64,000 nt of DNA. Origin: Ruminococcus sp. (lineage in GTDB: Bacteria > Bacillota > Clostridia > Oscillospirales > Acutalibacteraceae). Under the pieces are notes generated by a model. That model did not search any database and was not told the DNA's origin. It was given only the letters and a program-made list of their open reading frames with translations. Location of the stretch: contig JAFQQF010000026.1 in assembly GCA_017411385.1 (NCBI GenBank), positions 68,299-132,298 of the forward strand, written 5' to 3'. The translations under genes were made by a program, and so were the position numbers. How positions within the stretch are numbered: position 1 is the stretch's first letter; every line of letters begins with the position of its first letter. Shown here piece by piece: positions 7,908 to 22,608 of this stretch.

Positions 7908-9152
7908 TTAAGAATTATATACAGCCCAAGTACCTGCAAGCTTACCTGTAGAAAATGCAATCTGCAGATTAAAACCGCCTGTATAAGCATCAACATCAAT
8001 AACCTCACCACAGAAGTACAAACCCTTGCAAAGCTTACTTTCCATTGTAGTAGGATCTATCTCTGATGTTTTGACGCCTCCGCGGGTAATTATGGCTTCA
8101 TCAATTGGGCGTAGGTCTGATATATCGAATTTAAGCGCTTTAAGAAGGCTTACCAAAATATGCCTTTGCTCTTTCGTAATGCTGTTGCAACGAGTAGTGG
8201 GAGCAATTCCTGATCGCCTGATAACAACAGGAATCAAAGAGCTTGGCAACAAATCAGAAAGAGAGTTTGAAAGCTCTCTGTTTTTATATTTATCAAAATC
8301 ACGAAGTATTCGTGCGTCCAGCTTATCAAAATCAAGTGCAGGCTTTAAATCAACCAATATACTGTAGTCGCCTTTTTTTACATCTCTGATATGTGCACTT
8401 GAGCTGAGAATTGTAGGGCCAGAAAGCCCGAAATGAGTAAAAAGGAGTTCTCCGAAATCAGAATATACCTCCTTTTTGTTTTTCACAAGCTTTACTCCAG
8501 TATTACGAAGAGAAAGTCCCTGCATTTCCTTGCAATCGCGTAAATCATCGCCACTTGTGCAAAGAGGAATCAATGATGCCTCGGGCTTTATGATTGTGTG
8601 ACCTGCCTGCTGTGCAAGCTTGTAGCCGTCACCGGTTGAACCTGTGAGCGGATATGAGCATCCGCCTGTAGCTATAATCACCGCATCGCAAGGATACTCC
8701 CTGCCTGTACTATCTACAACTGACTTGACAGCACCATCAGAAATAATCAATTTTTTTGCAGTAGTTGCAGAAACAACTTTTACGTTTCCTTTATGAACGT
8801 ATCGCTCCAAAGCTGACACCACATCGGTAGCTTTATCAGACACAGGGAAAACACGGTTGCCGCGTTCTGTCTTTACAGCCAGTCCCATATTTTCAAAAAA
8901 ATCTATAGTATCTGAACAATCAAAATTGCTTATGGCACTATACATAAAGCGAGGATTTGAATTCACATTTTCGATGAAAACATTCTGGGTGCAGTTGTTT
9001 GTAATATTGCATCGGCCCTTGCCGGTAATGCAAAGCTTTCTGCCTACACGTTTGTTTTTTTCGAGAACGGTAACTGACGCGCAAAGCTCAGCCGCTGTTC
9101 CTGCGGCAATAAGCCCTGCGGCACCGCCGCCTATAACAACAATATCTGCCAT
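7908..9152 (-). CDS. HI0933/BaiN-family NAD(P)/FAD-dependent oxidoreductase
   Basis: GGGAAG, GRKLCITGKGRCNITN, GRVFP, LFTHFGLSGP, GEVIDVDAYTGGFNLQIAFSTG; start moved to ATG 9152, just after the rpiR stop. Confidence 0.92.
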   Translation of the reverse strand: MADIVVIGGGAAGLIAAGTAAELCASVTVLEKNKRVGRKLCITGKGRCNITNNCTQNVFIENVNSNPRFMYSAISNFDCSDTIDFFENMGLAVKTERGNRVFPVSDKATDVVSALERYVHKGNVKVVSATTAKKLIISDGAVKSVVDSTGREYPCDAVIIATGGCSYPLTGSTGDGYKLAQQAGHTIIKPEASLIPLCTSGDDLRDCKEMQGLSLRNTGVKLVKNKKEVYSDFGELLFTHFGLSGPTILSSSAHIRDVKKGDYSILVDLKPALDFDKLDARILRDFDKYKNRELSNSLSDLLPSSLIPVVIRRSGIAPTTRCNSITKEQRHILVSLLKALKFDISDLRPIDEAIITRGGVKTSEIDPTTMESKLCKGLYFCGEVIDVDAYTGGFNLQIAFSTGKLAGTWAVYNS

Positions 9153-9153
9153 A

Positions 9154-10026
9154 TCATTTATTACTGTTGTGAGTGCTTGTATATACACCTTGCTCGTTCC
9201 ATACAGTTTCCAAGGTTGCAAAAGTTTCCTTTACTTCCTCTTTATTCTTAATAACTGTAGCAACAATCAATGCGTTGATAAGCGACAAAGGAGCAACCAA
9301 AGAGTCAACAACAGATGCCATATCACTTCGTGCGATAAGTACAGAGTCTGCACTTTCAGCAAGAGGCGACATCATACTATCGGTGATTGCAATAGTTGAT
9401 GCACCGCGGGAAGATGCAAAATCCATAGCGCTTGCTGCAGTTTTGGAATATCTTGGGAAGCTGATACCAATAATAGCATCCTTTTCAGATATTCTGAGCA
9501 AAGCCTCATACATACCTGAACGGCTTGCTGTAGTTACAATATGAACATTGCCTAAAATTAGGTCAAAGTAATAACCCAAGAAGCCTGCAAGGGAGCTTGC
9601 CGAGCGAGTACCGAAAATATAAATATTCTCAGCTGATGTAATAGCTTCTACAGCACGATCAAAATCCTCGTGAGAGGTTTCTTCCAATGTTCTGCGGATT
9701 TTCTGGATATCCTGATTGAGAACACATTCAAGAACATCACCGTCACCGATTTTAGCGGCAGTAACCTCAATACGCTGAACAGATGTAAGCTTGTCCTTTA
9801 TCATTTCCTGCATAGCTTTCTGGAGCTGAGGATAGCCCGCATAACCAAGCTCTGTAGCAAAACGAACAACTGTGCTCTCGCTGACACCTACAATCTCTCC
9901 CAATCTGGAGGCTGTAAGAAATGCCGCTTGGTCATAGTGCTGTTCAATGAATTCGGCGATAAGCTTATGTCCCTTTGAAAGAGAGGTCATTTTTGAATCT
10001 ATTCTGACTAAAAGATGAGTTTCCAT
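9154..10026 (-). CDS. MurR/RpiR-family transcriptional regulator (HTH + SIS)
   Basis: SESTVVRFATELGYAGY HTH; SIS domain ISFPRYS, ITDSMMSPL. Confidence 0.92.
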   Translation of the reverse strand: METHLLVRIDSKMTSLSKGHKLIAEFIEQHYDQAAFLTASRLGEIVGVSESTVVRFATELGYAGYPQLQKAMQEMIKDKLTSVQRIEVTAAKIGDGDVLECVLNQDIQKIRRTLEETSHEDFDRAVEAITSAENIYIFGTRSASSLAGFLGYYFDLILGNVHIVTTASRSGMYEALLRISEKDAIIGISFPRYSKTAASAMDFASSRGASTIAITDSMMSPLAESADSVLIARSDMASVVDSLVAPLSLINALIVATVIKNKEEVKETFATLETVWNEQGVYTSTHNSNK

Positions 10027-10225: not shown

Positions 10226-10852
10226 TTAGTCATCTTCAATTTTTACGGGTATAAGCTTGTAAACCTCAGCGACTCTATCTCTCTGCCAAAGCATTGGAGT
10301 AACACGCATAGAAAAGCCATAGCCGTTATCACAAGCCCAATCGAATGGCTTTGCCTGAGGGATTCCGTAAATAGCAAGTAAAGTCATAATAATACCGCCG
10401 TGAGTAATAATTGCACAATCGGTATTGCCCGTCTTAATAAGTCCGTCAACAATATTTTGAAAAACAAGACAGATACGTCTTGTGAAATCATCATTTGACT
10501 CACCAAGAGGAGGAGTTGCACCCTCATCTCCTGCCAGCCATCTCTCAAAGAGAGGATCACCGCGGAGCTCATCGGCGGTTTTGCCTTCCCATTTTCCAAA
10601 GTTCATTTCGGTTAGCTCATCAATAACAATAGGCTTCACATGAGGATAAAGCACCTCGCAGGTCTGAGTGCAACGCTTAAGAGGTCCTGTAAATATCACA
10701 GGAGCATAAGGATATTTATGAGTAGAATCTAGGCTCTTAAGTGCTTTTATACCATCCTCAGAAAGTGCAGGGTCAGTTACACCGATATAAGCCCCCTTAT
10801 TAGTTTCTTCAATGGCTCCGTGTCTGATAAAATGAATATAATAAGATTTCAA
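10226..10852 (-). CDS. Histidine phosphatase family protein (CobC/PhoE-like)
   Basis: FIRHG motif, LTEMNFGKWEGK, ITHGG. Confidence 0.88.
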   Translation of the reverse strand: MKSYYIHFIRHGAIEETNKGAYIGVTDPALSEDGIKALKSLDSTHKYPYAPVIFTGPLKRCTQTCEVLYPHVKPIVIDELTEMNFGKWEGKTADELRGDPLFERWLAGDEGATPPLGESNDDFTRRICLVFQNIVDGLIKTGNTDCAIITHGGIIMTLLAIYGIPQAKPFDWACDNGYGFSMRVTPMLWQRDRVAEVYKLIPVKIEDD

Positions 10853-10925: not shown

Positions 10926-11624
10926 ATGAACAGGGATTTTCCGAGAATAATAACAATGCTGAGAAAGGAAAGAAAGCTCAGTCAGAAAGAAGTTGCACAG
11001 GAGCTGGGAGTTTCACAAGCATTGCTATCTCATTATGAAAAAGGAATTCGTGAGTGCAGTCTTGATTTTGTTATAAAAGTTGCAGAATACTACAGAGTTT
11101 CCTGTGATTTTTTGTTGGGACGTACTCCTGAAAGGTCAGGCGCAACACTGAGCTTTGATGATATACCGGATGCAGATGAGGCATTAAACGACATAGAAAA
11201 GAACTCAAGCCTTGTTCCCTATCTGAACAAAAAGATTCTAAGCAACACTCTAAACGTAATATTTGATATGTTAGCAAAGAATAAAAACAAACAGCTTACA
11301 GCAGATGTGTCTAATTACCTGATGCTTGCCGTATACAAGGTGTTTCGTTCTTTGTACTCTGTGAATCCTAAAAACGAGCAGACAATGTTCTCTGTAAAAA
11401 GAGCTTTATATCACGGCTATTGTGATTCTTATATGGCAAGGTTTTCAGCAAAATTTGAATATGCAACAAGCCTTGAAGCAGAAAACGAAAACGCAAAGTT
11501 ATTAAGAGAATCCCAGTACTCATCTGAATTATTATCGCAGGAATACTCAAAAGAGTCAAGTTCGTTATTTAATTTAATTCAGCATGCAGAAAGTAAAATA
11601 CGTACTAAGACAAGCAAATCATAA
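10926..11624 (+). CDS. XRE-family HTH transcriptional regulator with C-terminal extension
   Basis: LRKERKLSQKEVAQELGVSQALLSHYEKG..SCDFLLGRT. Confidence 0.88.
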   Translation: MNRDFPRIITMLRKERKLSQKEVAQELGVSQALLSHYEKGIRECSLDFVIKVAEYYRVSCDFLLGRTPERSGATLSFDDIPDADEALNDIEKNSSLVPYLNKKILSNTLNVIFDMLAKNKNKQLTADVSNYLMLAVYKVFRSLYSVNPKNEQTMFSVKRALYHGYCDSYMARFSAKFEYATSLEAENENAKLLRESQYSSELLSQEYSKESSSLFNLIQHAESKIRTKTSKS

Positions 11625-11633
11625 TATACAGAT

Positions 11634-11667
11634 AAGCACTTTTGAACTTACGCTCAAAAGTGCTTTT
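11634..11667. terminator. Terminator hairpin between convergent genes
   Basis: AAGCACTTTTGA-acttacgc-TCAAAAGTGCTT, 12-bp stem. Confidence 0.7.
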
Positions 11668-11670
11668 AGT

Positions 11671-13317
11671 TTAATTAGTCTTTTCGGGGCCGGCACTTAC
11701 TACAAGATAAACAGCAGACTCAAGGGCGATTCTATCACCTGCGCTGTGTCCTTTGTATCCGATAACCTTACCCTCGGCTACTTTATCACTATGAACAACA
11801 GAGGTGTCCTGATAAACAACAAATCCAAGCTCAGTGAGCTTTGACACGGCAGATGCTAAGGACATATCCTCAACATTAGGCAAAGTTGCAGCATTGGGAC
11901 CTCGGCTTACCTTAAAGGTTACAGCAAAGCCTTTATCTGCATCTAAGGGAGTTCCCTCAGGAAAGCTCTGTGACATAATCACGCCTTCATCGTACATATC
12001 GGAATAACCATCCGATGAGCTTGTGTATGCATCCTTGTATGCAACAATACCTTTAGAAGAAAGCTCTGCACGTACCTGTTCAAAATTCTTGCCAACATAG
12101 TTTTTCAAGGTTTCACCTGTCCACTCCTCATTATTGATTGTAGGAGTTTCGGTTACCGATGTTTGAGTGGATATCTGACCGGGCTCAGGATTTTCTGTTG
12201 TTGTGTTTCTATTAATGATAAGTATACCAATCCATAAAAACAAAAGAGATGCTACAACAGTAACAATGATACCGACTGATATAGGCGACATTCCGAAGTT
12301 GCTCTTCTTAGGTCTTTCTGTTTTAGCCATACTGGCAGTGCGGCTAATTTCCTCTTGAATTGCCTTTACGGTAGGAGCAACAGAAAGCTGAGAACGCAAA
12401 TCACCAAAGTCGATGATTCTGTCTTCACGCTTAACTTGAAGTCCATTTGCAAGCGCAGAAACCACATGTGGAGGCAATCTCTTCACAGTGCTTGTGCTCA
12501 TAAAGAGTGCACCGTCAGACAGCCTCTCCTTTGCTCCTGCAGGAAGAGAGCCTGTAAGTGCATAGAACAACGTGGCGGTAAAGCCATAAATATCGGTAAT
12601 ATTATCTAAGGGAAAAGAGTTTTCATACTGCTCAGGAGCGGCACAGCCTGTAAAAAGCTGAGATTTGAGAGATGTACCCCTTCTGCGCTCATCAGCGGTA
12701 GCAAAGCCTAACAACAAAGCTTTTCCTGAGGTTGTAATATATAGGTTAGTGGGAGAAATTGCGTAGTGTCCATAGCCATGCTTGTGCAAAGCTTCAAGAA
12801 GAGAAATTACAGGCATAAAAAGAGGACGTGCTACCTCCCACTCCAAATGACCATTATTACGGGTTACATACTCCTCAAAGGAAATAAGCTCCTCATACTC
12901 TTCTACCACATAGCAGGTATTGTTTGCTCTGAAAATATCTGTAATAACATTCATAGCAGACATATCACGCAAGGTAGAAAGAAAAGAGAAAAACTGCTCA
13001 AATTCCATAAACAATCTTTCGTAATCCTCTGCTTTGGAAGCATCAGGAATAACTTTAACTGTACCCTCAGCTCGGGTATAATACCCAGCAGGTAAAAACT
13101 CACGTATAAGAACAGTATTGGAAGTTTGTCTGTCAAATCCGATGTAGAGTGTACTTTCACCGTTTGTTTCTATGTTTCTGCCTACAACATAGCGTTTGTT
13201 GAGAACCGCACCGTAAGGCAGAAAAGGTGCCGACTGAGTACGGGAATTATCAAAACCGCAATCAGGACATATAATCTCTGAGCCGATTTCATGCATACAG
13301 CCTATACAAAGTGACAT
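11671..13317 (-). CDS. Membrane Ser/Thr kinase-like protein (probable pseudokinase) with N-terminal Zn ribbon and two PASTA domains
   Basis: CIGC..CPDC; kinase scaffold (RYVVG, AAPEQY, TDIYG) with degenerate catalytic motifs; TM helix; PASTA-like repeats (LKNYVGK.., LPNVEDMS..A...L). Confidence 0.82.
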   Translation of the reverse strand: MSLCIGCMHEIGSEIICPDCGFDNSRTQSAPFLPYGAVLNKRYVVGRNIETNGESTLYIGFDRQTSNTVLIREFLPAGYYTRAEGTVKVIPDASKAEDYERLFMEFEQFFSFLSTLRDMSAMNVITDIFRANNTCYVVEEYEELISFEEYVTRNNGHLEWEVARPLFMPVISLLEALHKHGYGHYAISPTNLYITTSGKALLLGFATADERRRGTSLKSQLFTGCAAPEQYENSFPLDNITDIYGFTATLFYALTGSLPAGAKERLSDGALFMSTSTVKRLPPHVVSALANGLQVKREDRIIDFGDLRSQLSVAPTVKAIQEEISRTASMAKTERPKKSNFGMSPISVGIIVTVVASLLFLWIGILIINRNTTTENPEPGQISTQTSVTETPTINNEEWTGETLKNYVGKNFEQVRAELSSKGIVAYKDAYTSSSDGYSDMYDEGVIMSQSFPEGTPLDADKGFAVTFKVSRGPNAATLPNVEDMSLASAVSKLTELGFVVYQDTSVVHSDKVAEGKVIGYKGHSAGDRIALESAVYLVVSAGPEKTN

Positions 13318-13497
13318 AATATCATCTCCATTTGAAGCACATAATTACACTTATAACTATAGTAATTATATTATATCACGTCAAAAGCCCAAAAACAAGA
13401 ATCTGTAATGTTACACAATTTACAGTTTTGTTATTGTATTGGTAGTTTTAACAAAATCAAATTGACTTTAGCACCAAATCACAGATAATTGCAAACA

Positions 13498-13539
13498 GAA
13501 AAACGGTTGTTTCCATAACACAGGAACAACCGTTTTTTC
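13498..13539 (-). terminator. Terminator after the ABC exporter operon
   Basis: AAAAACGGTTGTT...AACAACCGTTTTT inverted repeat with T-tract. Confidence 0.7.
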
Positions 13540-13548
13540 TTATAAAGT

Positions 13549-15327
13549 TTATTTATCAGAGAACTGAGAATTGTAAAGCTTAGCGTAAAGACCGTCTTTA
13601 GCCATAAGCTCTTCGTGATTTCCTACCTCTAGGATGTCACCGTCCTGCATATACAGGATGTTTTCAGCATCTTTAATTGTAGAAAGTCTGTGAGCAATAA
13701 CAAATGAGGTCTTCCCCTTCATCATTTCGCTCATAGCTTCTTGAATCATAACCTCTGTACGGGTATCAACAGAAGACGTTGCTTCGTCAAGAATAAGTAT
13801 AGGCGGATTATTAAGCATGGCTCTTGCAATTGTTAAGAGCTGACGCTGACCCTGAGCGATATTACCTGCACCTTCTTGCAAAACAAAGTTGTAACCGCCT
13901 GGCAATGTACGGATGAAGGCGTCTGCCCTAGCTTTCTTTGCCGCCTCAATAACCTCTTCGTCGGTTGCATCAAGCTTTCCGTAACGGATGTTCTCCATAA
14001 TTGTGCCGTTGTAAAGCCATGTATCCTGCAAAACCATACCGAAGATTTCTCTCAAACGGCTTCTTTCCATATCGCGGATATCAACACCGTCAATATTAAT
14101 TGAACCGCTTCTTACATCATAGAAACGCATAATAAGGTTAATAAGGGTTGTCTTGCCTGCACCTGTGGGTCCAACGATAGCAGTCTTTTCACCTGCACCG
14201 ATCTTGATATCAAGGTCGTGAATAAGTGTCTGGTGTGGCAGATAACCAAAACGGATGTGGTTAAATGTAACCTGACCCTTGAGCTCTTTGGGGAACTGGG
14301 GATTCTCAACATCGTCAACCTCTTCCTCTTCATCAAGGAACTCGAAGATTCTTGAAGCTGCAGAGCCTGTTGACTGGATAATGTTTGTAATCTGCATTAC
14401 CTGAGTAAGAGGCTGAGAGAACTGTCTAAGATACAAAGTAAAGGACTGAATCATACCGATAGAAAGTCCACCCATTATAGCGATAATCGCACCAACAATA
14501 CAAACAAGAGCGTAGCCTAAGTTTGTCATATTCTGCATTATCGGCATAAGAGTACCGGCAAGGAACTGACCATCCTTTGAGGATTCAAAAAGGTCCTCGT
14601 TGGTTTTTTCAAATTCATCGATAACAGTATCTTCTCTGCCAAATACAGTAACTACATTGTGACCTGAATAATACTCTTCTACGAAGCCGTTCAGTTCTCC
14701 TGTTTTGCTCTGCTGTGCATCAAACTTTGCTTTTGATTTCTTAGCAATTTTTGCTGAAACATACAGGGCTACAGGAACGATAGCAAGCCCGACAAAGGTG
14801 AGAACACCGCTTATGTTGAGCATAATGATAAAGATAATCACAATGGTAAAGAAAGCGTTGAGTATCTGATAAATGCTCTGCTGTAAAGAGCTAGAAACAG
14901 TATCAACATCATTTGTAACGCGGCTCAGAATATCACCGTACGAATTTGTGTCATAGTAGTTTAAAGGAAGCTTTGAAAGCTTATGGTCAACCTTTTTTCT
15001 CAGGTCATAGATTGTGTTTTCTGTAACACCAACAATCAGCCATGTGCCAATGTAAGAAAGCAGGGAGTTTATACCATAAGCACAACCCATAAAAGCAAGG
15101 AACTTGAGGAAACTGCGAAGAGCATCGGGGTTTTTACCGCCTTCAAGGAGTATTGCAAGGAAGTTTGTAGCATTACCCATAAGCAGAGGTGCCGCCGCAT
15201 AAGCAAGGTTTGCCACCATAATCAGAAGTATTGCAAGTATCAATCTGCCGCGGTAGGGCTTCATATAAGAGAACAATCTCTTGTATGCGCCTTTTTGTTT
15301 GGAGGAACTAACGTTATTTTTCATCAC
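13549..15327 (-). CDS. ABC exporter subunit (TMD+NBD), partner of the 15324-17054 gene
   Basis: GPTGAGKTT, consensus Walker B ILDE and AHR, degenerate signature IAQGQ. Confidence 0.93.
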   Translation of the reverse strand: MMKNNVSSSKQKGAYKRLFSYMKPYRGRLILAILLIMVANLAYAAAPLLMGNATNFLAILLEGGKNPDALRSFLKFLAFMGCAYGINSLLSYIGTWLIVGVTENTIYDLRKKVDHKLSKLPLNYYDTNSYGDILSRVTNDVDTVSSSLQQSIYQILNAFFTIVIIFIIMLNISGVLTFVGLAIVPVALYVSAKIAKKSKAKFDAQQSKTGELNGFVEEYYSGHNVVTVFGREDTVIDEFEKTNEDLFESSKDGQFLAGTLMPIMQNMTNLGYALVCIVGAIIAIMGGLSIGMIQSFTLYLRQFSQPLTQVMQITNIIQSTGSAASRIFEFLDEEEEVDDVENPQFPKELKGQVTFNHIRFGYLPHQTLIHDLDIKIGAGEKTAIVGPTGAGKTTLINLIMRFYDVRSGSINIDGVDIRDMERSRLREIFGMVLQDTWLYNGTIMENIRYGKLDATDEEVIEAAKKARADAFIRTLPGGYNFVLQEGAGNIAQGQRQLLTIARAMLNNPPILILDEATSSVDTRTEVMIQEAMSEMMKGKTSFVIAHRLSTIKDAENILYMQDGDILEVGNHEELMAKDGLYAKLYNSQFSDK

Positions 15328-17054
15328 TCTTCCTCCTTACTCATCTGAGAATCTACAATTTCCTTGTAAACATCACAGGTATTGAGAAGCTCATTGTGAG
15401 TGCCTATACCTGCAACCTGACCTTTTTCGATTACAATGATTCTGTCGGCATCAATAATGGTACTGATTCGCTGAGCAACAATAACAACAGTGGCATCGCC
15501 TGTTTCTTTTGAAAGAGCCTGACGCAAAGACTTGTCGGTCTTGAAATCAAGAGCAGAGAAGCTATCGTCAAACACGTATATTTCAGGCTTGCGGACAATT
15601 GCTCTTGCAATGGCAAGGCGCTGACGCTGTCCTCCAGACACATTTGTACCGCCCTGAGAAATAGGAGAATTAAAGCCCTCCTCTTTCTTCATTACAAAGT
15701 CATAGGACTGAGCAATTTTCACAGCCTCTTCGATTCTGTCCTCATCGGCAGTTCTGTCACCAAAAGCAATGTTAGAGTCTATTGTACCTGCAAACAGCAC
15801 AGCCTTCTGAGGAACAAAACCGATTTTGTTTCTCAAGACTTCCATATCATAATCTCTTACGTCAACACCATCTACAAGCACCTGACCCTCGGTTACATCA
15901 TAAAGTCTGGGAATCAGGTTAACAATTGTGGATTTACCCATACCAGTACCGCCGATAATAGCCGTAGTTTCTCCGGGCTTTGCCTCAAAGGAGAGGTTCT
16001 CAATAGCAGGTACATCTGCACCGGGATATGTAAACGAAACATTCTTAAATGTAAGATATCCTCTCTGTGAGGTATTATCCTTTGTATTTTCACAATTTTT
16101 GATAGATGGCTCTGTTTCAAGAACCTCCTGTGCTCTGGCTGCTGCAGTTGATGCACGGGGCAGCATAACAAACACAAGAGTCAGCATAATCACAGCCATC
16201 ATAATCTGCATGATATACTGGATAATTGCCATAATTTCGCCAATGGTATAATCAATGCCTTTGTTGAGTGACTGGTTTGCTGCCATAAGCATTACCATTG
16301 ATGCTGTTAAGGCAAGTACCACAACAAGCACAGGCATAACAAGGTTTGTTGTACGCTGGAGCTTCTTATTTGTTTTCTGATAATCCTTATTAATTTCATC
16401 AAACTTCTTCGACTCAAAATCAACTGTACCGAAAGCACGGATTACCCTCACACCTGTAAGTTTTTCACGCATAACAAGGTTAATACGATCGATTTTTGTC
16501 TGAATCCTTGTAGAAAGAGGCACCGCAATCTTGGCTATTGCTACAAGAACAATTGCCATGAGAGGAACAGAAATTACAAGCACACCGGAAAGCTGAGGCG
16601 AGCTTGAGATAGCAAGAACAACACCGCAGATACACATAATAGGAGCCTGCACAGCAATTCTTAAGCACTGGTTAAGAAATACCTGTACCTGAGAAATATC
16701 GTTGTTTGTTCTTGTGATAAGAGAGGATGCAGAAAATCTGTCAATTTCAGTCTGAGAGAAATACTGCACCTTATTAAAAATTTTACTTCTTAAGTTTCTG
16801 CCGACGCCCATGGAAACAGTAGCAGAAAGTCTGCTGGTAACTACTCCGCAGAATAGTCCGAACACAACCAGAGCAATCATAAGTCCGCCAACTCTGAATA
16901 CCATAGCTTTGTCCCCTTGAGGAATAGCCACGTCAATAAGACGTGTAAGTAACGACGGCAATCCCAGTGCTGAGAGGGTTGTGCCCAAAACTGTCAGCAC
17001 TATAAGTACAAGCTGTTTTTTATAACAGCCGAGTTCTTTAAATACACTTTTCAT
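15324..17054 (-). CDS. ABC exporter subunit (TMD+NBD) of a heterodimeric multidrug-type exporter
   Basis: GGTGMGKST, VSGGQRQR, degenerate Walker B VFDD and switch AQR: the asymmetric heterodimer pattern. Confidence 0.93.
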   Translation of the reverse strand: MKSVFKELGCYKKQLVLIVLTVLGTTLSALGLPSLLTRLIDVAIPQGDKAMVFRVGGLMIALVVFGLFCGVVTSRLSATVSMGVGRNLRSKIFNKVQYFSQTEIDRFSASSLITRTNNDISQVQVFLNQCLRIAVQAPIMCICGVVLAISSSPQLSGVLVISVPLMAIVLVAIAKIAVPLSTRIQTKIDRINLVMREKLTGVRVIRAFGTVDFESKKFDEINKDYQKTNKKLQRTTNLVMPVLVVVLALTASMVMLMAANQSLNKGIDYTIGEIMAIIQYIMQIMMAVIMLTLVFVMLPRASTAAARAQEVLETEPSIKNCENTKDNTSQRGYLTFKNVSFTYPGADVPAIENLSFEAKPGETTAIIGGTGMGKSTIVNLIPRLYDVTEGQVLVDGVDVRDYDMEVLRNKIGFVPQKAVLFAGTIDSNIAFGDRTADEDRIEEAVKIAQSYDFVMKKEEGFNSPISQGGTNVSGGQRQRLAIARAIVRKPEIYVFDDSFSALDFKTDKSLRQALSKETGDATVVIVAQRISTIIDADRIIVIEKGQVAGIGTHNELLNTCDVYKEIVDSQMSKEEE

Positions 17055-17068
17055 TTTGAAGTCACCTT

Positions 17069-17614
17069 TTATTCCTTGTCTTCAAACACAGACATAATAA
17101 GCCTTACACCATACACAAGCAATTCAATACCAATCATATATCCGATGGCAAAAGCGGCATATAAAAGATGAGAGGCACCGTAAAGTCCTGTTATAATAAG
17201 TAGTATACTCATAACAAGTGTCAACACCCAGAACTTACCGCTACGTTTTTTCTGTGCTACTGCACGGAATATACCTAGAACGCCTGCATAGATTAACCAG
17301 AAAACGAACATAATGAGAATCATAATATCCAGAACACCGCGTACCCAAGGAATAAACAATGCAAGTACAGACATAACTGCAGCAGATATACCGAATATAA
17401 GCTCGATAACGCCGTTTGCAACAAGTCCTTTTCTTCCCTCTTCATTTTTTCTCTCTCGGTTTGATGCATATTCAAAAATACTGCATACACCCAGAACGCC
17501 AAGCAAAATAGCCACGATAAGACCGCTGCTCAAAAAGGTTGCACCGGGAAAACACATGCAGTAAATTGCACCGAAAATAGAAAAAACGCCTAAAATACAG
17601 TTAAAAGTTTTCAT
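17069..17614 (-). CDS. HdeD/DUF308-family membrane protein
   Basis: About six hydrophobic helices in a two-repeat arrangement; AGGAGG RBS 6 nt before ATG 17614. Confidence 0.7.
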   Translation of the reverse strand: MKTFNCILGVFSIFGAIYCMCFPGATFLSSGLIVAILLGVLGVCSIFEYASNRERKNEEGRKGLVANGVIELIFGISAAVMSVLALFIPWVRGVLDIMILIMFVFWLIYAGVLGIFRAVAQKKRSGKFWVLTLVMSILLIITGLYGASHLLYAAFAIGYMIGIELLVYGVRLIMSVFEDKE

Positions 17615-17699
17615 AAGCATCCTCCTTTTTTATTAAATAATAGCATATTTTCGACAATTATCAAGACAACATTGTAATTATCTTCAAAATTTGTTGCAC

Positions 17700-18084: not shown

Positions 18085-18160
18085 TGGTGGAGACGATGGG
18101 GATCGAACCCACGACCTCTTGAATGCCATTCAAGCACTCTCCCAGCTGAGCTACGCCCCC
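18085..18160 (-). tRNA. tRNA-Ala (GGC)
   Basis: GGGGGCGTAGCTCAGCTGGGAGAGTGCTTGAATGGCATTCAAGAGGTCGTGGGTTCGATCCCCATCGTCTCCACCA; G3:U70 pair, GGC anticodon, encoded CCA. Confidence 0.97.
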
Positions 18161-18270: not shown

Positions 18271-18972
18271 TTATTTGTTTTTCATTGTATTGTAAGAAAG
18301 CTCTACTGCTTCAAAGCTTATATTACAACAGAATTTATATACAGGAACCTTTGTGAGGGTTTCATCAAGCAAGCTAAACAGTGCTGACATCTCAGCGACA
18401 TTATCAGGTCTGAGGGTTTGTTCCATAAGAACAGGAAGTGCCTCGGCAACCGAAATCTTTTTTATGCTGTTTTCCTTGCTCTGATTTAGGATGCTAATTC
18501 CGCACAAAGGAACCATAACGTTAGTGTTTATATCGTACTTGCCGGAAAAGGGTGTTCCGCAGATATAAGGGGTACCATCAATAATTCTGACCGCAGGCTT
18601 ATCATCATTTACAGAAATAACCTTATCACCAAAATACTTGCGCCAAAGTGATGCGTGAGTTGACTTACCTGCACCGCAGGGACCTGTAAAAACAAAGCCT
18701 TCTCCGTCTACAGAAAGTGCCGCGCTGTGAAGGAAGAACGCACCTTTTAGAATTATTGCCCTGTAAAACTTAATACCTGCAACCACATACTCTGCCAAAT
18801 CCTCGTTCATAGGATATTTTGCTATATGGTTTTGAATATCTTCCTCTGTAATTTCCAGAGAAAAATCAGGAGTCAAGCTCTGGTCCTCGGATAAGTACTT
18901 CTCTGAACGATTCCTAAGACGAGAAAATCGGGGTTCGTATTCAACATTAAAACCGCAAATTGAGTAAATCAT
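18271..18972 (-). CDS. HPr-kinase-related P-loop protein (ScmC / lasso-cluster kinase-like)
   Basis: LHSAA, GPCGAGKSTH, VNDDKPAVR, CGTPFSGK motifs. Confidence 0.75.
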   Translation of the reverse strand: MIYSICGFNVEYEPRFSRLRNRSEKYLSEDQSLTPDFSLEITEEDIQNHIAKYPMNEDLAEYVVAGIKFYRAIILKGAFFLHSAALSVDGEGFVFTGPCGAGKSTHASLWRKYFGDKVISVNDDKPAVRIIDGTPYICGTPFSGKYDINTNVMVPLCGISILNQSKENSIKKISVAEALPVLMEQTLRPDNVAEMSALFSLLDETLTKVPVYKFCCNISFEAVELSYNTMKNK

Positions 18973-19886: not shown

Positions 19887-21869
19887 TTATTGAGCCTCAC
19901 CGGGTGTCATTGTAGGTTCAACCTGCTCCAAGCCGGTATCAACATACTCATTCTGTGCAACAACCTCATAGGTTTTTTCTGTGAAATTAACACGGTATTC
20001 TCTGTAAAGCTGGTCATCAAGCAAAACACGAACGGTCGTGTAATCTCTGCCTGTAACGCTAAAATTGTGAGTTGCCACACCGGGGTACACGGTTACCGTT
20101 TGAGGAGATACTCCTTCTACAGCAACTGTAAACTGCATTGAATGAGTGATATTCTGAGGCAGGTCAACAGAAATTGTAACTGAGTTTTCGGGTGAAAGTG
20201 CACTTACGTAAATTGTAACAGCTGAGCCGGATTTAAGCTCACCACCTAAGGGTGACTGCGTAACTACGGTATCCTTAGCCTTAGTGCTTTCAATCGGTTC
20301 AACTATACATTCAAATCCTAGGCTCTCAATTTTTGTTATAGCATCAGCCTTTGTATAACCGATTGTATTGGGAACACTCACCTTGCGGGAGTCAGCCTCA
20401 CCTGCTGCAACATAAAGATAGATGGTTTCATTGAGAGAAACCACAGAACCCTGCTGAGGATAAGAACGAACTACAGAATCATCCTCCGCACTTGAATCTG
20501 AAACCTTGATAACCTCGATTCGATAAAAGCCTTCTTGGTTAAGAGTGGCCATAGCAGAAGCAATATTTGTACCGTAAATCGCAGGTATAGATTGGTCACT
20601 CTGTGCACTATTCACGGAAAGTGTAATTGAGCCGTTTGCTTTGATTTTTTTAGAGCCTGCTTTAGGCTGCTGATCAAGAATTATGCCAAGCTCATGCTCT
20701 TCACTATATACATAATCATATTCAAACCTAAACTGATAGTCGGTGTTCTCATTAATTTCCTGAACGGTCTTACCCACAAAGTTCGGAACCTCCACATCAG
20801 GAGCCTCTGTAATCTGACTGTTGCGGAATGCACCTAAAGGAATACAAACAATCAGAGAAATGCAAAGAGCGATAAGTATTCCAACTATTATCGGTACGGT
20901 CAAGCTATGACGTACCTTTTCATCTTCGCTGGGCTTGTTGCTCTGAGCAAACTCTTCTGCTCTGTGACTCTTACCTTTTGACACAGCATCTACATACTTA
21001 GTAGGCTGCTTATCGTAAAGATATTTATACTCAAAACGAACAGAAGGATTCATTCTGAAACGTTCGATATCATCAAGCATATCCTGTGCTGACTGATAGC
21101 GGTCACCGGGCTGCTTTTGCATAGCCTTAAGAGTAATCTCCTCAATACCTTCAGGAATTGAGGGGTTTAGTGTACGGGGAGTATCGGGAACAACCTGAAG
21201 ATGCATCAAAGCTACAGACACAGCATTATCGCCGTCAAAGGGAAGCTTTCCTGTGAGCATCTCGTACATCATAACACCGATTGAGTAAATATCGGTTTTG
21301 CCGTCTGTTATATCACCCTTTGCTTGTTCAGGGGCAATATAATGAACAGAACCGATTGCCTGCTCTGTCATAGTTCTTGTGGAATTTGAAAATCTTGCGA
21401 TACCGAAATCAGTAACCTTGATAGTACCGTCAGAAAGAAGCATCATATTCTGAGGCTTGATGTCACGGTGAACAACACCCTTGCTGTGTGCGTGAGAAAG
21501 TGCCTTAAGAATCTGGGTTACAAGGTGAACAGTTTCCTTCCAAGTGAGAACCTTTTGCTGATTGATATACTCTTTAAGAGTTATGCCGTCAATATATTCC
21601 ATAACGATATACTGAATCATATCTCCGAAGCTGACATCATAAACCTTCACAATATTGGGATGTGAAAGCACAGCAATAGCCTTGGATTCATTTTTGAATC
21701 TGCGGATAAACTCCTCGTTGTTCAGGTATTCATCTTTTAATATCTTTATAGCAACCTCACGGTCGTCTATTGTATCATAACAGCGATAAACGTTAGCCAT
21801 ACCGCCGATACCGATTAGCTCACGGATTTCATATCTGCCGTCAAGCTTTTTTCCTACGTATTTATCCAT
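19887..21869 (-). CDS. pknB: Stk1/PknB PASTA-domain Ser/Thr kinase
   Basis: GIGGMANV, VAIK, HRDIKPQN, DFG, APE all intact; TM helix; three PASTA repeats. Confidence 0.96.
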   Translation of the reverse strand: MDKYVGKKLDGRYEIRELIGIGGMANVYRCYDTIDDREVAIKILKDEYLNNEEFIRRFKNESKAIAVLSHPNIVKVYDVSFGDMIQYIVMEYIDGITLKEYINQQKVLTWKETVHLVTQILKALSHAHSKGVVHRDIKPQNMMLLSDGTIKVTDFGIARFSNSTRTMTEQAIGSVHYIAPEQAKGDITDGKTDIYSIGVMMYEMLTGKLPFDGDNAVSVALMHLQVVPDTPRTLNPSIPEGIEEITLKAMQKQPGDRYQSAQDMLDDIERFRMNPSVRFEYKYLYDKQPTKYVDAVSKGKSHRAEEFAQSNKPSEDEKVRHSLTVPIIVGILIALCISLIVCIPLGAFRNSQITEAPDVEVPNFVGKTVQEINENTDYQFRFEYDYVYSEEHELGIILDQQPKAGSKKIKANGSITLSVNSAQSDQSIPAIYGTNIASAMATLNQEGFYRIEVIKVSDSSAEDDSVVRSYPQQGSVVSLNETIYLYVAAGEADSRKVSVPNTIGYTKADAITKIESLGFECIVEPIESTKAKDTVVTQSPLGGELKSGSAVTIYVSALSPENSVTISVDLPQNITHSMQFTVAVEGVSPQTVTVYPGVATHNFSVTGRDYTTVRVLLDDQLYREYRVNFTEKTYEVVAQNEYVDTGLEQVEPTMTPGEAQ

Positions 21870-21882
21870 TTGCTACACCTCC

Positions 21883-22608
21883 TCAATAAATAACAGTTAC
21901 AGTAATATTGTCTGTTCCGCCGCCTTCTTTGGCTTTATCCACAAGCTTGTTTGTCATATCCTCACCACGATTTTCGTGGACAAGCTTTACTATATCGCCG
22001 GTGCTTACGCAGTTTGTCAGACCGTCTGTGCATATTAGCAAAACATCACCATAAGTAAAATTAGCTTCGATGTAATCAATAGTAACCTCGGGGCGGATAC
22101 CCAGAGCACGTGTAATTATGTTTTTATTGGGATGCTTCATAGCTTCCTCAGGGGTGATTTCACCGCGTCTTACCATTTCCTGAACGATGGAGTGGTCTTC
22201 GGTGAGCTGTTTAATCTTACCGCCGCGAATAGCATAGGTACGGCTGTCACCAACGTGAACCACGTGTATTGTGCGGTCTTTTACAAAAACAAACTCACAG
22301 GTTGTGCCCATTCCCTCCAGCTCAGGGTTGGAAATAGACAAATCAAAAACGTGAGCATTTGCACGCTGAACAATATCTGTAAGCAGGGTTACAAGCTGTT
22401 CTTTAGAAAGCTTTTCATCGTAAAGCTCAGATATCTGCTCACTGATAACATCAACAGCCGCGGCAGAAGCAACGTTGCCACCGTTGGCTCCGCCCATACC
22501 GTCACAAACTACAGCCCACGCACAAGAGGGCGAGAAAACTCCGAAGCGACAGTCATCTTGATTTGATGTTCTTACTAAACCTATATCACTTTTGCTGAAA
22601 ACTTCCAA
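21883..22608 (-). CDS. stp: Stp1/PrpC PP2C-family Ser/Thr phosphatase
   Basis: VCDGMGG, HVGDSR, LTEDHS, CTDGL, GGTDNIT. Confidence 0.95.
   Translation of the reverse strand: MEVFSKSDIGLVRTSNQDDCRFGVFSPSCAWAVVCDGMGGANGGNVASAAAVDVISEQISELYDEKLSKEQLVTLLTDIVQRANAHVFDLSISNPELEGMGTTCEFVFVKDRTIHVVHVGDSRTYAIRGGKIKQLTEDHSIVQEMVRRGEITPEEAMKHPNKNIITRALGIRPEVTIDYIEANFTYGDVLLICTDGLTNCVSTGDIVKLVHENRGEDMTNKLVDKAKEGGGTDNITVTVIY

Follow-up and report, generated by a model that had tools for sequence, protein, structure and literature searches.

Organization of the gene and loss of the catalytic motifs

We analyzed a stretch of 64,000 nucleotides (the window) from a Ruminococcus sp. contig (JAFQQF010000026.1 of assembly GCA_017411385.1, positions 68,299 to 132,298), in which an open reading frame (ORF) on the reverse strand at 11671-13317 encodes a predicted membrane protein with two PASTA repeats and a kinase-like domain whose catalytic motifs are altered. 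The window also carries the gene for an intact PASTA kinase, PknB. The ORF is uninterrupted, and its product of 548 amino acids is followed by a stop codon. The parts of the gene, with the evidence for each assignment, are as follows (TM, transmembrane; pLDDT, predicted local distance difference test; omega, the ratio dN/dS of nonsynonymous to synonymous substitution rates).

11671-13317, reverse strand: whole gene, encoding zinc ribbon, pseudokinase domain, TM helix and two PASTA repeats (ORF list, Pfam, AlphaFold2 model)
13228-13317, reverse strand: predicted N-terminal zinc ribbon, residues 1-30, with C4, C7, C17 and C20 (Cys conservation, pLDDT 93-95)
12382-13227, reverse strand: pseudokinase domain, residues 31-312 (motifs, alignments, Foldseek, omega)
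13153-13170, reverse strand: Gly loop changed to ETNGES, residues 50-55 (read at exact coordinates, as are the next four)
13099-13113, reverse strand: β3 motif changed to VLIRE, residues 69-73, with R72 for the Lys
12745-12768, reverse strand: catalytic loop HYAISPTN, residues 184-191, with A186 for the HRD Asp
12700-12708, reverse strand: DFG changed to GFA, residues 204-206, with G204 for the Asp
12631-12639, reverse strand: APE, retained, residues 227-229
12292-12381, reverse strand: juxtamembrane segment, residues 313-342 (invariant columns in 38 orthologues; model helix 315-328)
12208-12291, reverse strand: single TM helix, residues 343-370 (AlphaFold2 helix 345-370)
12124-12207, reverse strand: low-complexity extracellular linker, residues 371-398 (pLDDT below 50; highest omega)
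11674-12123, reverse strand: two PASTA repeats, residues 399-475 and 476-548 (Pfam PF03793, pLDDT 86-98)

A preliminary description of this locus had held that the Gly loop and the VAIK, HRD and DFG motifs were all altered in an intact ORF which retained APE, a TM helix and two PASTA repeats and carried a zinc ribbon. The altered motifs were confirmed one by one, and the remaining points were borne out by the ORF list, Pfam and the AlphaFold2 model and, for the zinc ribbon, by the four conserved Cys residues. Alignment with active relatives and with PknB added a fifth loss that the description did not contain, as the position of the αC Glu is occupied by F109. At the positions by which an active Ser/Thr kinase is recognized, the protein has ETNGES, R72, F109, A186 and G204, and its activation segment, GFATADERRRGT, contains no DYD motif. 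Judged by its sequence, the protein is a pseudokinase under the general definition, since the VAIK Lys, the HRD Asp and the DFG Asp are all gone and their loss is conserved.

The match of this domain to the Pfam Pkinase model (PF00069) is weak, at 36.7 bits against a cut-off of 31.7, and the PASTA region matches PF03793 with 60.9 bits in two stretches that form α/β units in the structural model. The N-terminus follows the pattern C4-x2-C7 ... C17-P-x-C20; the four Cys residues do not vary among 38 orthologues, 318 of 322 family members have them, and the Pfam zinc-ribbon models gave no match to this region at E ≤ 0.1. By its two CxxC knuckles the N-terminus is a zinc ribbon, for which metal binding is predicted. 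The juxtamembrane helix AIQEEISRTAS, which includes S325, T327 and S329, is clade-invariant and was confined to members with at least about 45% identity. Directly before the hydrophobic helix lies a basic stretch, KTERPKKSNFG, consistent with an N-terminus inside the cell and a C-terminus, with the PASTA repeats, outside it, and a hydrophobic segment occupies the TM position in nearly all homologues.

An AlphaFold2 model built on an alignment of 133 sequences (mean pLDDT 90.1) comprised a complete bilobal kinase fold at residues 31-312, including the activation loop and the helices after αF, a helix at 315-328, the TM helix at 345-370, a disordered stretch at 377-396 and two PASTA units. This model superseded a first run with 38 close orthologues only, in which the pLDDT was 62 and the C-lobe was unresolved.

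Conservation of the degenerate domain

Motifs were checked in the best 120 database relatives (52-100% identity), all 120 of which had R or C at the β3 position, A or G in place of the HRD Asp, G in place of the DFG Asp, and the four Cys residues. A scan of one genome per species found the orthologue in 280 species-level genomes, mostly metagenome-assembled genomes labelled Ruminococcus, Clostridia or Oscillospiraceae, with one labelled Acutalibacteraceae; R. bromii ATCC 27255 was among them, as were two complete Ruminococcus genomes. We also looked for orthologues that keep K/HRD/DFG, a finding that the preliminary description had itself set against its proposal, and found the K/D/D triad in none of 322 single-domain, PASTA-bearing family members (0/322), with the HRD Asp likewise absent from every one of them.

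Selection was estimated by the Nei-Gojobori method in 15 pairs, in which dS was saturated (above 1.2) and the omega ratios are consequently rough. The pseudokinase domain gave dN of 0.06-0.13, dS > 1.2 and omega of about 0.03-0.09; omega was 0.05-0.18 in the PASTA region and 0.2-0.5 in the linker, the least constrained part. In the 49 genomes with both genes, the cytoplasmic domain was 61-92% identical to that of the window, compared to 78-100% for the PknB kinase domain, while ectodomain identity was 33-83% for the pseudokinase and 27-79% for PknB. The omega values and these identities together make the dead domain the best-conserved part of the protein. The results showed that purifying selection acts strongly on the whole protein, and on the cytoplasmic domain most of all, throughout a large family of Clostridia of the Oscillospirales type. 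The pseudokinase proposed in the preliminary description thus withstood the check on conserved degeneration that the description had set for it. At the distance of R. bromii, identities were about 33-41% (pseudokinase) and 27-38% (PknB) for the ectodomains and 61-66% and 78-81% for the cytoplasmic domains, and the two ectodomains diverge at similarly high rates.

A strain-specific, functionless copy of a kinase in the course of decay has nothing in its favor except the motif loss itself. It is refuted by the ORF being intact in the window and in the 280 species-level genomes, by the same substitutions in all orthologues and by an omega of about 0.05; the confident AlphaFold2 model also speaks against it, and we give it virtually no credence. 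With regard to transcripts, only gut metagenome DNA runs were found to contain the window sequence, and no RNA data were found; in runs matching the R. bromii orthologue, depth was flat over genes and spacers, which marks these runs as DNA.

Extent of the family and origin of the pseudokinase domain

With a threshold of E ≤ 1e-30, a HMMER search with residues 1-335 as query gave 2,345 cluster representatives; relaxing it to E ≤ 1e-10 gave 14,648, a set that certainly includes ordinary kinases. Among the top 150 matches most were proteins of 490-700 amino acids with an identical plan, and all 85 distant members tested (85/85) had PASTA together with a weak Pkinase match (E ≤ 0.001). In the family consensus the Gly loop has become xxNGEG, β3 reads V-x-I-R-E, HRD and its surroundings read H-[RYLGF]-[GA]-I-S-P-[ED]-[TN], and DFG has become G-F-[SAC]. 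The named sources were Ruminococcus, Acutalibacteraceae, Caproiciproducens, Yeguia hominis, Candidatus Scatavimonas and ‘Clostridiales’. The databases label these proteins only ‘PASTA domain-containing protein’ or ‘serine/threonine protein kinase’, and for the entire family the latter is very probably a misnomer.

The same search recovered zinc-ribbon kinases with intact GQGGFG, VAIKE, HRDISPDN and DFG motifs. In phmmer comparisons the pseudokinase domain scored 88-133 bits against these active zinc-ribbon kinases but 40 bits against the PknB of the window, and it shares with the former a β3-αC insert of 20-25 residues with an invariant R82. The higher scores and the common insert indicate that the pseudokinase is not a decayed copy of PknB; a degenerate PknB duplicate was ruled out on these grounds, and the degenerate PknB paralogue implied by the preliminary description was not borne out. 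In line with this, Foldseek placed the type VI secretion system kinase PpkA (5hnv, 5x1r) at the top of the Protein Data Bank (PDB) matches, with a TM-score of 0.79 and E = 1.5e-17; S. aureus PknB also reached a TM-score of 0.79, and S. aureus and M. tuberculosis PknB and PknA ranked after PpkA. A sequence search of the PDB agreed with this ranking. The zinc-ribbon Hanks kinases and PpkA-type kinases are the closest relatives of the cytoplasmic domain in both sequence and structure, and have in common with it the CxxC...CPxC ribbon, I-[KR]-E-[FYL]-x-P after β3, the insert with R82 and an [AP]xEQY P+1 region. They differ in that they keep GxGGFG, VAIK, HRD and DFG and are presumably active. The zinc-ribbon kinases that were recovered are cytosolic or tandem multi-kinase proteins, and the aligned active relatives lack a PASTA ectodomain.

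Three positions distinguish the pseudokinase domains from their active relatives: R42 is present in 375 of 415 pseudokinase domains compared to 5 of 25 active relatives, W160 in 402/415 compared to 5/25, and R211, in the activation segment, in 395/415 compared to 0/25. From their distribution in the alignment, R42, W160 and R211 look like constraints gained with a non-catalytic role.

Several tandem metagenomic proteins (P0133, P0161, P0168, P0177, P0191, P0216 and P0260) have one intact zinc-ribbon kinase domain with one to three degenerate copies behind it. A zinc ribbon of their own is kept by several of these copies, and P0133 has four domains in 1291 amino acids. This suggests that pseudokinase domains were born repeatedly and independently in the zinc-ribbon kinase lineage. 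The dead domains of the tandem proteins are less similar to the pseudokinase than the active domains are, so that they are probably independent degenerations, and the tandem fusions (P0133, P0161, P0168 and others) were not used as a Rosetta-stone pointer to an active partner.

Genomic context of the pseudokinase gene

The neighboring features of the locus are listed below.

21883-22608, reverse strand: PP2C phosphatase Stp, immediately upstream of pknB (Pfam PP2C_2 and PP2C)
19887-21869, reverse strand: intact PASTA kinase PknB/Stk1, 660 amino acids, candidate partner (NF033483, Pfam)
18085-18160, reverse strand: tRNA-Ala(GGC), end of the pknB block (ARAGORN)
13498-13539, reverse strand: intrinsic-terminator hairpin with T-run, 3′ of the upstream ABC exporter gene (sequence, RNA fold)
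13356-13384, reverse strand: promoter-like site TTGACG-17-TATAGT, 5′ of the pseudokinase gene (consensus match only, 10/12)
11634-11665, no strand assigned: palindromic hairpin where the pseudokinase and XRE genes converge (terminator scan, 12-bp stem, fold -15.0 kcal/mol)
10926-11624, forward strand: convergent XRE-family helix-turn-helix (HTH) protein, 232 amino acids (Pfam HTH_3)

The gene at 19887-21869 encodes a genuine Stk1/PknB, which keeps GxGG, VAIK, HRD, DFG and APE as the preliminary description had stated, and which scores 546.2 bits on NF033483 (cut-off 450) and 192 bits on Pkinase, with three PASTA stretches. On the same NF033483 model the pseudokinase scores 92.2 bits, mostly from its PASTA region and below the equivalog threshold of 450. 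These two are the only kinase-like genes in the 64-kb window, where pknB sits in the classic rlmN-stp-pknB-rsgA arrangement. Neighborhoods were counted in the best 80 of the 280 loci. In 48 of these 80, the pseudokinase gene has stp and pknB upstream of it on its own strand, the order being rlmN-stp-pknB-rsgA-pseudokinase; rlmN was detected in 47 and rsgA in 53. In R. bromii ATCC 27255 (locus L041) a thiN gene (a thiamine-pyrophosphokinase-like ORF of 216 amino acids, at 9042-9692) and tRNA-Ala(GGC) (at 9758-9833, directly before the pseudokinase) lie between the pknB block and the pseudokinase gene. The window differs in that the tRNA and the pseudokinase gene are separated by insertions, namely a DUF308 membrane protein (17069-17620) and two ABC exporters, both full-length (13549-15327 and 15324-17054). 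The slot of the R. bromii thiamine-pyrophosphokinase-like ORF is filled in the window by a 233-amino-acid protein (18271-18972, reverse strand) that carries the Walker A sequence GPCGAGKST, matches no Pfam model at 1e-4 and is conserved in only 5 of the 80 loci.

The terminator at 13498-13539 divides the ABC exporter gene from the pseudokinase gene, and the 81-nt stretch that holds its hairpin (13480-13560) has a fold of -22.3 kcal/mol. A ribosome-binding site, GGAG, precedes the pseudokinase ATG, and the hairpin at 11634-11665 is likely a bidirectional terminator. On the far side of that hairpin, the XRE gene is present in 46 of the 80 loci and a His_Phos_1 gene in 45, and both still adjoin homologues of 41% and 50% identity (L081, L083) where pknB is no longer adjacent, which makes XRE the most deeply conserved neighbor, deeper than the pknB adjacency. 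The His_Phos_1 phosphatase of the window lies at 10226-10852 on the reverse strand, and the C-terminal part of the XRE protein is of unknown function. Six further distant members (P0271, P0272, P0153, P0282, P0341 and P0373) have other neighbors; those of the distant members include YebC, Flavodoxin_2, Polysacc_deac_1, Amidase_3, FtsW/RodA and DnaB_2.

Possible role in PknB/Stp signaling

The conserved loss of the motifs across hundreds of related bacteria points to a working, non-enzymatic signaling protein, and we infer that it signals without catalysis. As the best reading we propose a kinase-dead PASTA receptor that modulates cell-wall signaling by PknB and Stp, to which we assign a probability of roughly 0.45. 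The PASTA repeats would bring the protein to sites of peptidoglycan synthesis or to lipid II/muropeptides, as in PknB, PrkC and StkP. The rigid pseudokinase domain, with R211 and the P+1/APE region in its conserved activation segment, the juxtamembrane Ser/Thr helix and the zinc ribbon would together serve as a module without catalytic function, binding the resident PknB/Stp pair, tuning its output and probably being phosphorylated by it. Possible modes are dimerization with the kinase, competition for ligand or septal sites, and docking of substrates. Four considerations make modulation of PknB/Stp the most likely role. Through their PASTA repeats the two proteins would be drawn to a common ligand or site; apart from the pseudokinase, pknB is the sole kinase-like gene of the window; the R. 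bromii clade preserves the location behind the pknB block; and CD2148 provides a precedent in the same bacterial class.

CD2148 of C. difficile would serve as the functional model. Catalytic residues are missing from it, it fails to autophosphorylate and PrkC alone phosphorylates it, and its inactivation makes PrkC-dependent CwlA phosphorylation more than four-fold higher (PMC9674922, PMC8262956). Like the protein described here, it is a second membrane-anchored Hanks-type protein beside a PASTA kinase in the class Clostridia with key catalytic residues missing. On the published description, by which rather than by sequence the two were compared, it differs in that no PASTA domain has been described for it (PMC9674922), and its residue numbering (catalytic-loop residues 134 and 139) suggests that it has no N-terminal zinc ribbon. 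In mycobacteria a kinase-less TM-PASTA construct disturbs PknB-dependent growth, possibly through competition for ligand (PMC4632501). Cell-wall genes (Polysacc_deac_1, Amidase_3, FtsW/RodA) recur beside distant members of the family. As candidate phospho-acceptors the alignments suggest T215, a position with Thr or Ser in 273 of 415 aligned domains and with Gly in 97, as well as S325, T327 and S329, which are invariant in the clade.

Several points weigh against modulation of PknB/Stp. Adjacency to pknB was looked for around distant homologues (31-50% identity) and was absent, being confined to one family-level clade, and the proximity may reflect inherited gene order rather than a functional link; we have therefore down-weighted synteny as evidence. 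The pseudokinase gene forms a separate transcription unit, with a terminator, the tRNA-Ala and, in the window, five genes between it and pknB. The domain is not of PknB descent, and its partner could be a zinc-ribbon kinase elsewhere in the genome. Binding of ligand by the PASTA repeats is assumed from homology, and expression of the gene is deduced only from selection. The proximity to pknB thus exists, but only within one clade and without co-transcription of the genes, and the link to PknB is weaker than the preliminary description had implied. For the role of co-receptor, scaffold or inhibitor of PknB proposed there, the synteny, the common PASTA ectodomain and the analogy to CD2148 are only suggestive.

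A more specific form of the PknB/Stp reading would have the protein as the dead half of a receptor kinase/pseudokinase pair, which forms a heterodimer with PknB through the PASTA-TM region and/or the N-lobe and sets the signaling threshold in gut Clostridia; we offer this tentatively and consider it doubtful. R42 and D127 align with the Arg of ‘GRY’ and the Asp of ‘VYD’ in PknB, residues which we take to form the back-to-back N-lobe contact of M. tuberculosis PknB. D76 and L33 have been confirmed as PknB interface residues, and the back-to-back model is contested for StkP (PMC13434768). On alignment, the match of R42 and D127 to this interface pair may be taken as a lead, not as evidence. At the position equivalent to Leu33, which presumably is Leu in B. 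subtilis PrkC, a hand alignment placed Asp in the PknB of the window (residue 35) and in that of R. bromii (L041). The L33D substitution in M. tuberculosis PknB is reported to disrupt the back-to-back interface, and the hand alignment was too uncertain to interpret.

Alternative explanations of the conserved pseudokinase

The protein might instead be an autonomous cell-wall scaffold, anchored by its PASTA repeats, whose dead kinase domain and zinc ribbon recruit divisome or wall-remodeling proteins without PknB, much like EssB/YukC or the pseudokinase domain of MviN. This would agree with the position of distant members away from pknB and beside Polysacc_deac_1, Amidase_3, FtsW/RodA, YebC and Flavodoxin_2, with a domain lineage distinct from that of PknB, and with the precedent of structural pseudokinases in Firmicutes (PMC12599244). 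However, the neighboring genes vary and none is universal, the conserved Ser/Thr residues in the juxtamembrane helix and activation segment fit a phospho-regulated protein, and in the R. bromii clade the gene has stayed immediately behind the pknB block; we consider a PknB-independent scaffold unlikely, though deserving of serious attention. The deep conservation of the convergent XRE and His_Phos_1 genes beside homologues of 41% and 50% identity raises another explanation, that of a membrane-bound regulator in which the zinc ribbon and pseudokinase sequester the HTH protein and release it upon a cell-wall signal. This is improbable in our judgment, given that the two genes are convergent with a terminator between them, that R. 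bromii ATCC 27255 has no XRE gene at this place, where groES-groEL follow instead, that XRE is absent from the contexts of the six further distant members named above, and that no known mechanism links Hanks-fold domains to XRE repressors.

A further possibility is that the protein is a non-canonical enzyme which binds nucleotide and carries out phosphotransfer or another reaction through displaced residues, as do WNK, CASK and SelO. In its favor, H184 and P189 do not vary, this clade retains N191, the β3 residue is usually Arg, and some bacterial families with a K-to-R change (DYD) are predicted to bind ATP (PMC12599244). Yet five elements (the Gly loop, β3 Lys, αC Glu, HRD Asp and DFG Asp) have been lost together, N191 is replaced by Thr in most of the wider family, the β3 residue varies (R, C, H, Y, I, S), and compensation of the DYD type needs an HRD Asp and a DYD motif, both of which are absent. 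We consider such catalysis very improbable. While the descriptive part of our account is solid, we infer the functional part, in which modulation of PknB/Stp remains the preferred role.

Comparison with PASTA kinases and described pseudokinases

The protein has the topology of the PASTA kinases (PknB/PrkC/StkP/Stk1; NF033483; the ‘KAPD’ family), namely a Hanks domain, a juxtamembrane segment, a TM helix and extracellular PASTA repeats, and likely responds to the same class of ligand and localization cue; in the R. bromii clade its gene adjoins the stp-pknB operon. It differs from them in its missing catalytic residues, its N-terminal zinc ribbon and β3-αC insert, and its two PASTA repeats, where PASTA kinases have three and a C-terminal domain.

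Seven bacterial pseudokinase families have been described (ActPs1-3, which include the MviN pseudokinase domain, GLW, CP1, DYD and DLHK), with EssB/YukC as a further example (PMC12599244; bioRxiv 10.1101/2025.01.12.632604). These likewise combine a conserved Hanks fold with degraded VAIK, HRD and DFG motifs, membrane association and a presumed non-catalytic role, but neither any of the seven nor EssB/YukC is described with PASTA repeats or a zinc ribbon. The DYD family resembles the pseudokinase in usually having Arg at β3 and in missing the αC Glu; at the level of motifs it is distinct, since it keeps the HRD Asp together with DYD and the HRD Asp is absent here in 322/322. GLW has GLW for HRD and LLLL/W for VAIK, where we found HYA (HRG/HLG in the wider family) and V-x-I-R-E. 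By their descriptions, ActPs1-3 are set apart as actinobacterial proteins with G-helix/activation-loop deletions or large inserts, compared to a complete fold from Clostridia here, and CP1 and DLHK as cytosolic proteins with COG3899 from cyanobacteria and proteobacteria, compared to a membrane-bound protein with PASTA. EssB, unlike the pseudokinase, is part of type VII secretion. Judged by motifs, taxon and architecture as described, the protein matches none of the seven families and is the pseudokinase counterpart of the PASTA receptor kinases. No prior description of a PASTA-linked or zinc-ribbon pseudokinase was found in the open-access literature, which was the scope of the search, subscription journals lying outside it. 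The thousands of ‘PASTA domain-containing proteins’ may constitute an eighth, undescribed bacterial pseudokinase family, which would add a large family of distinct architecture to a short list.

Among eukaryotic receptor pseudokinases, such as HER3 with EGFR/HER2 and the plant receptor-like ones, a ligand-binding ectodomain and one TM helix are joined to a dead kinase that pairs with an active kinase. Should the heterodimer with PknB prove true, the protein would be a prokaryotic counterpart of the HER3-type allosteric partners, by analogy only, as there is no homology beyond the kinase fold. In Gram-positives, PASTA kinases govern cell division and wall synthesis as well as antibiotic tolerance and spore germination, and the mechanism of their activation is still a matter of debate (PMC13434768). 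A PASTA receptor that is kinase-dead by nature would offer a probe to split the roles of the ectodomain and kinase scaffold from phosphotransfer, and the one described here is conserved by hundreds of species of gut Ruminococcus, Acutalibacteraceae and their relatives, among them R. bromii, a keystone degrader of starch.

Elsewhere in the window, the listed TTG start of an HI0933-like flavoprotein gene (7908-9221, reverse strand) overlaps an RpiR-family gene (9154-10026, reverse strand) by 68 nt, and its true start probably lies further downstream.

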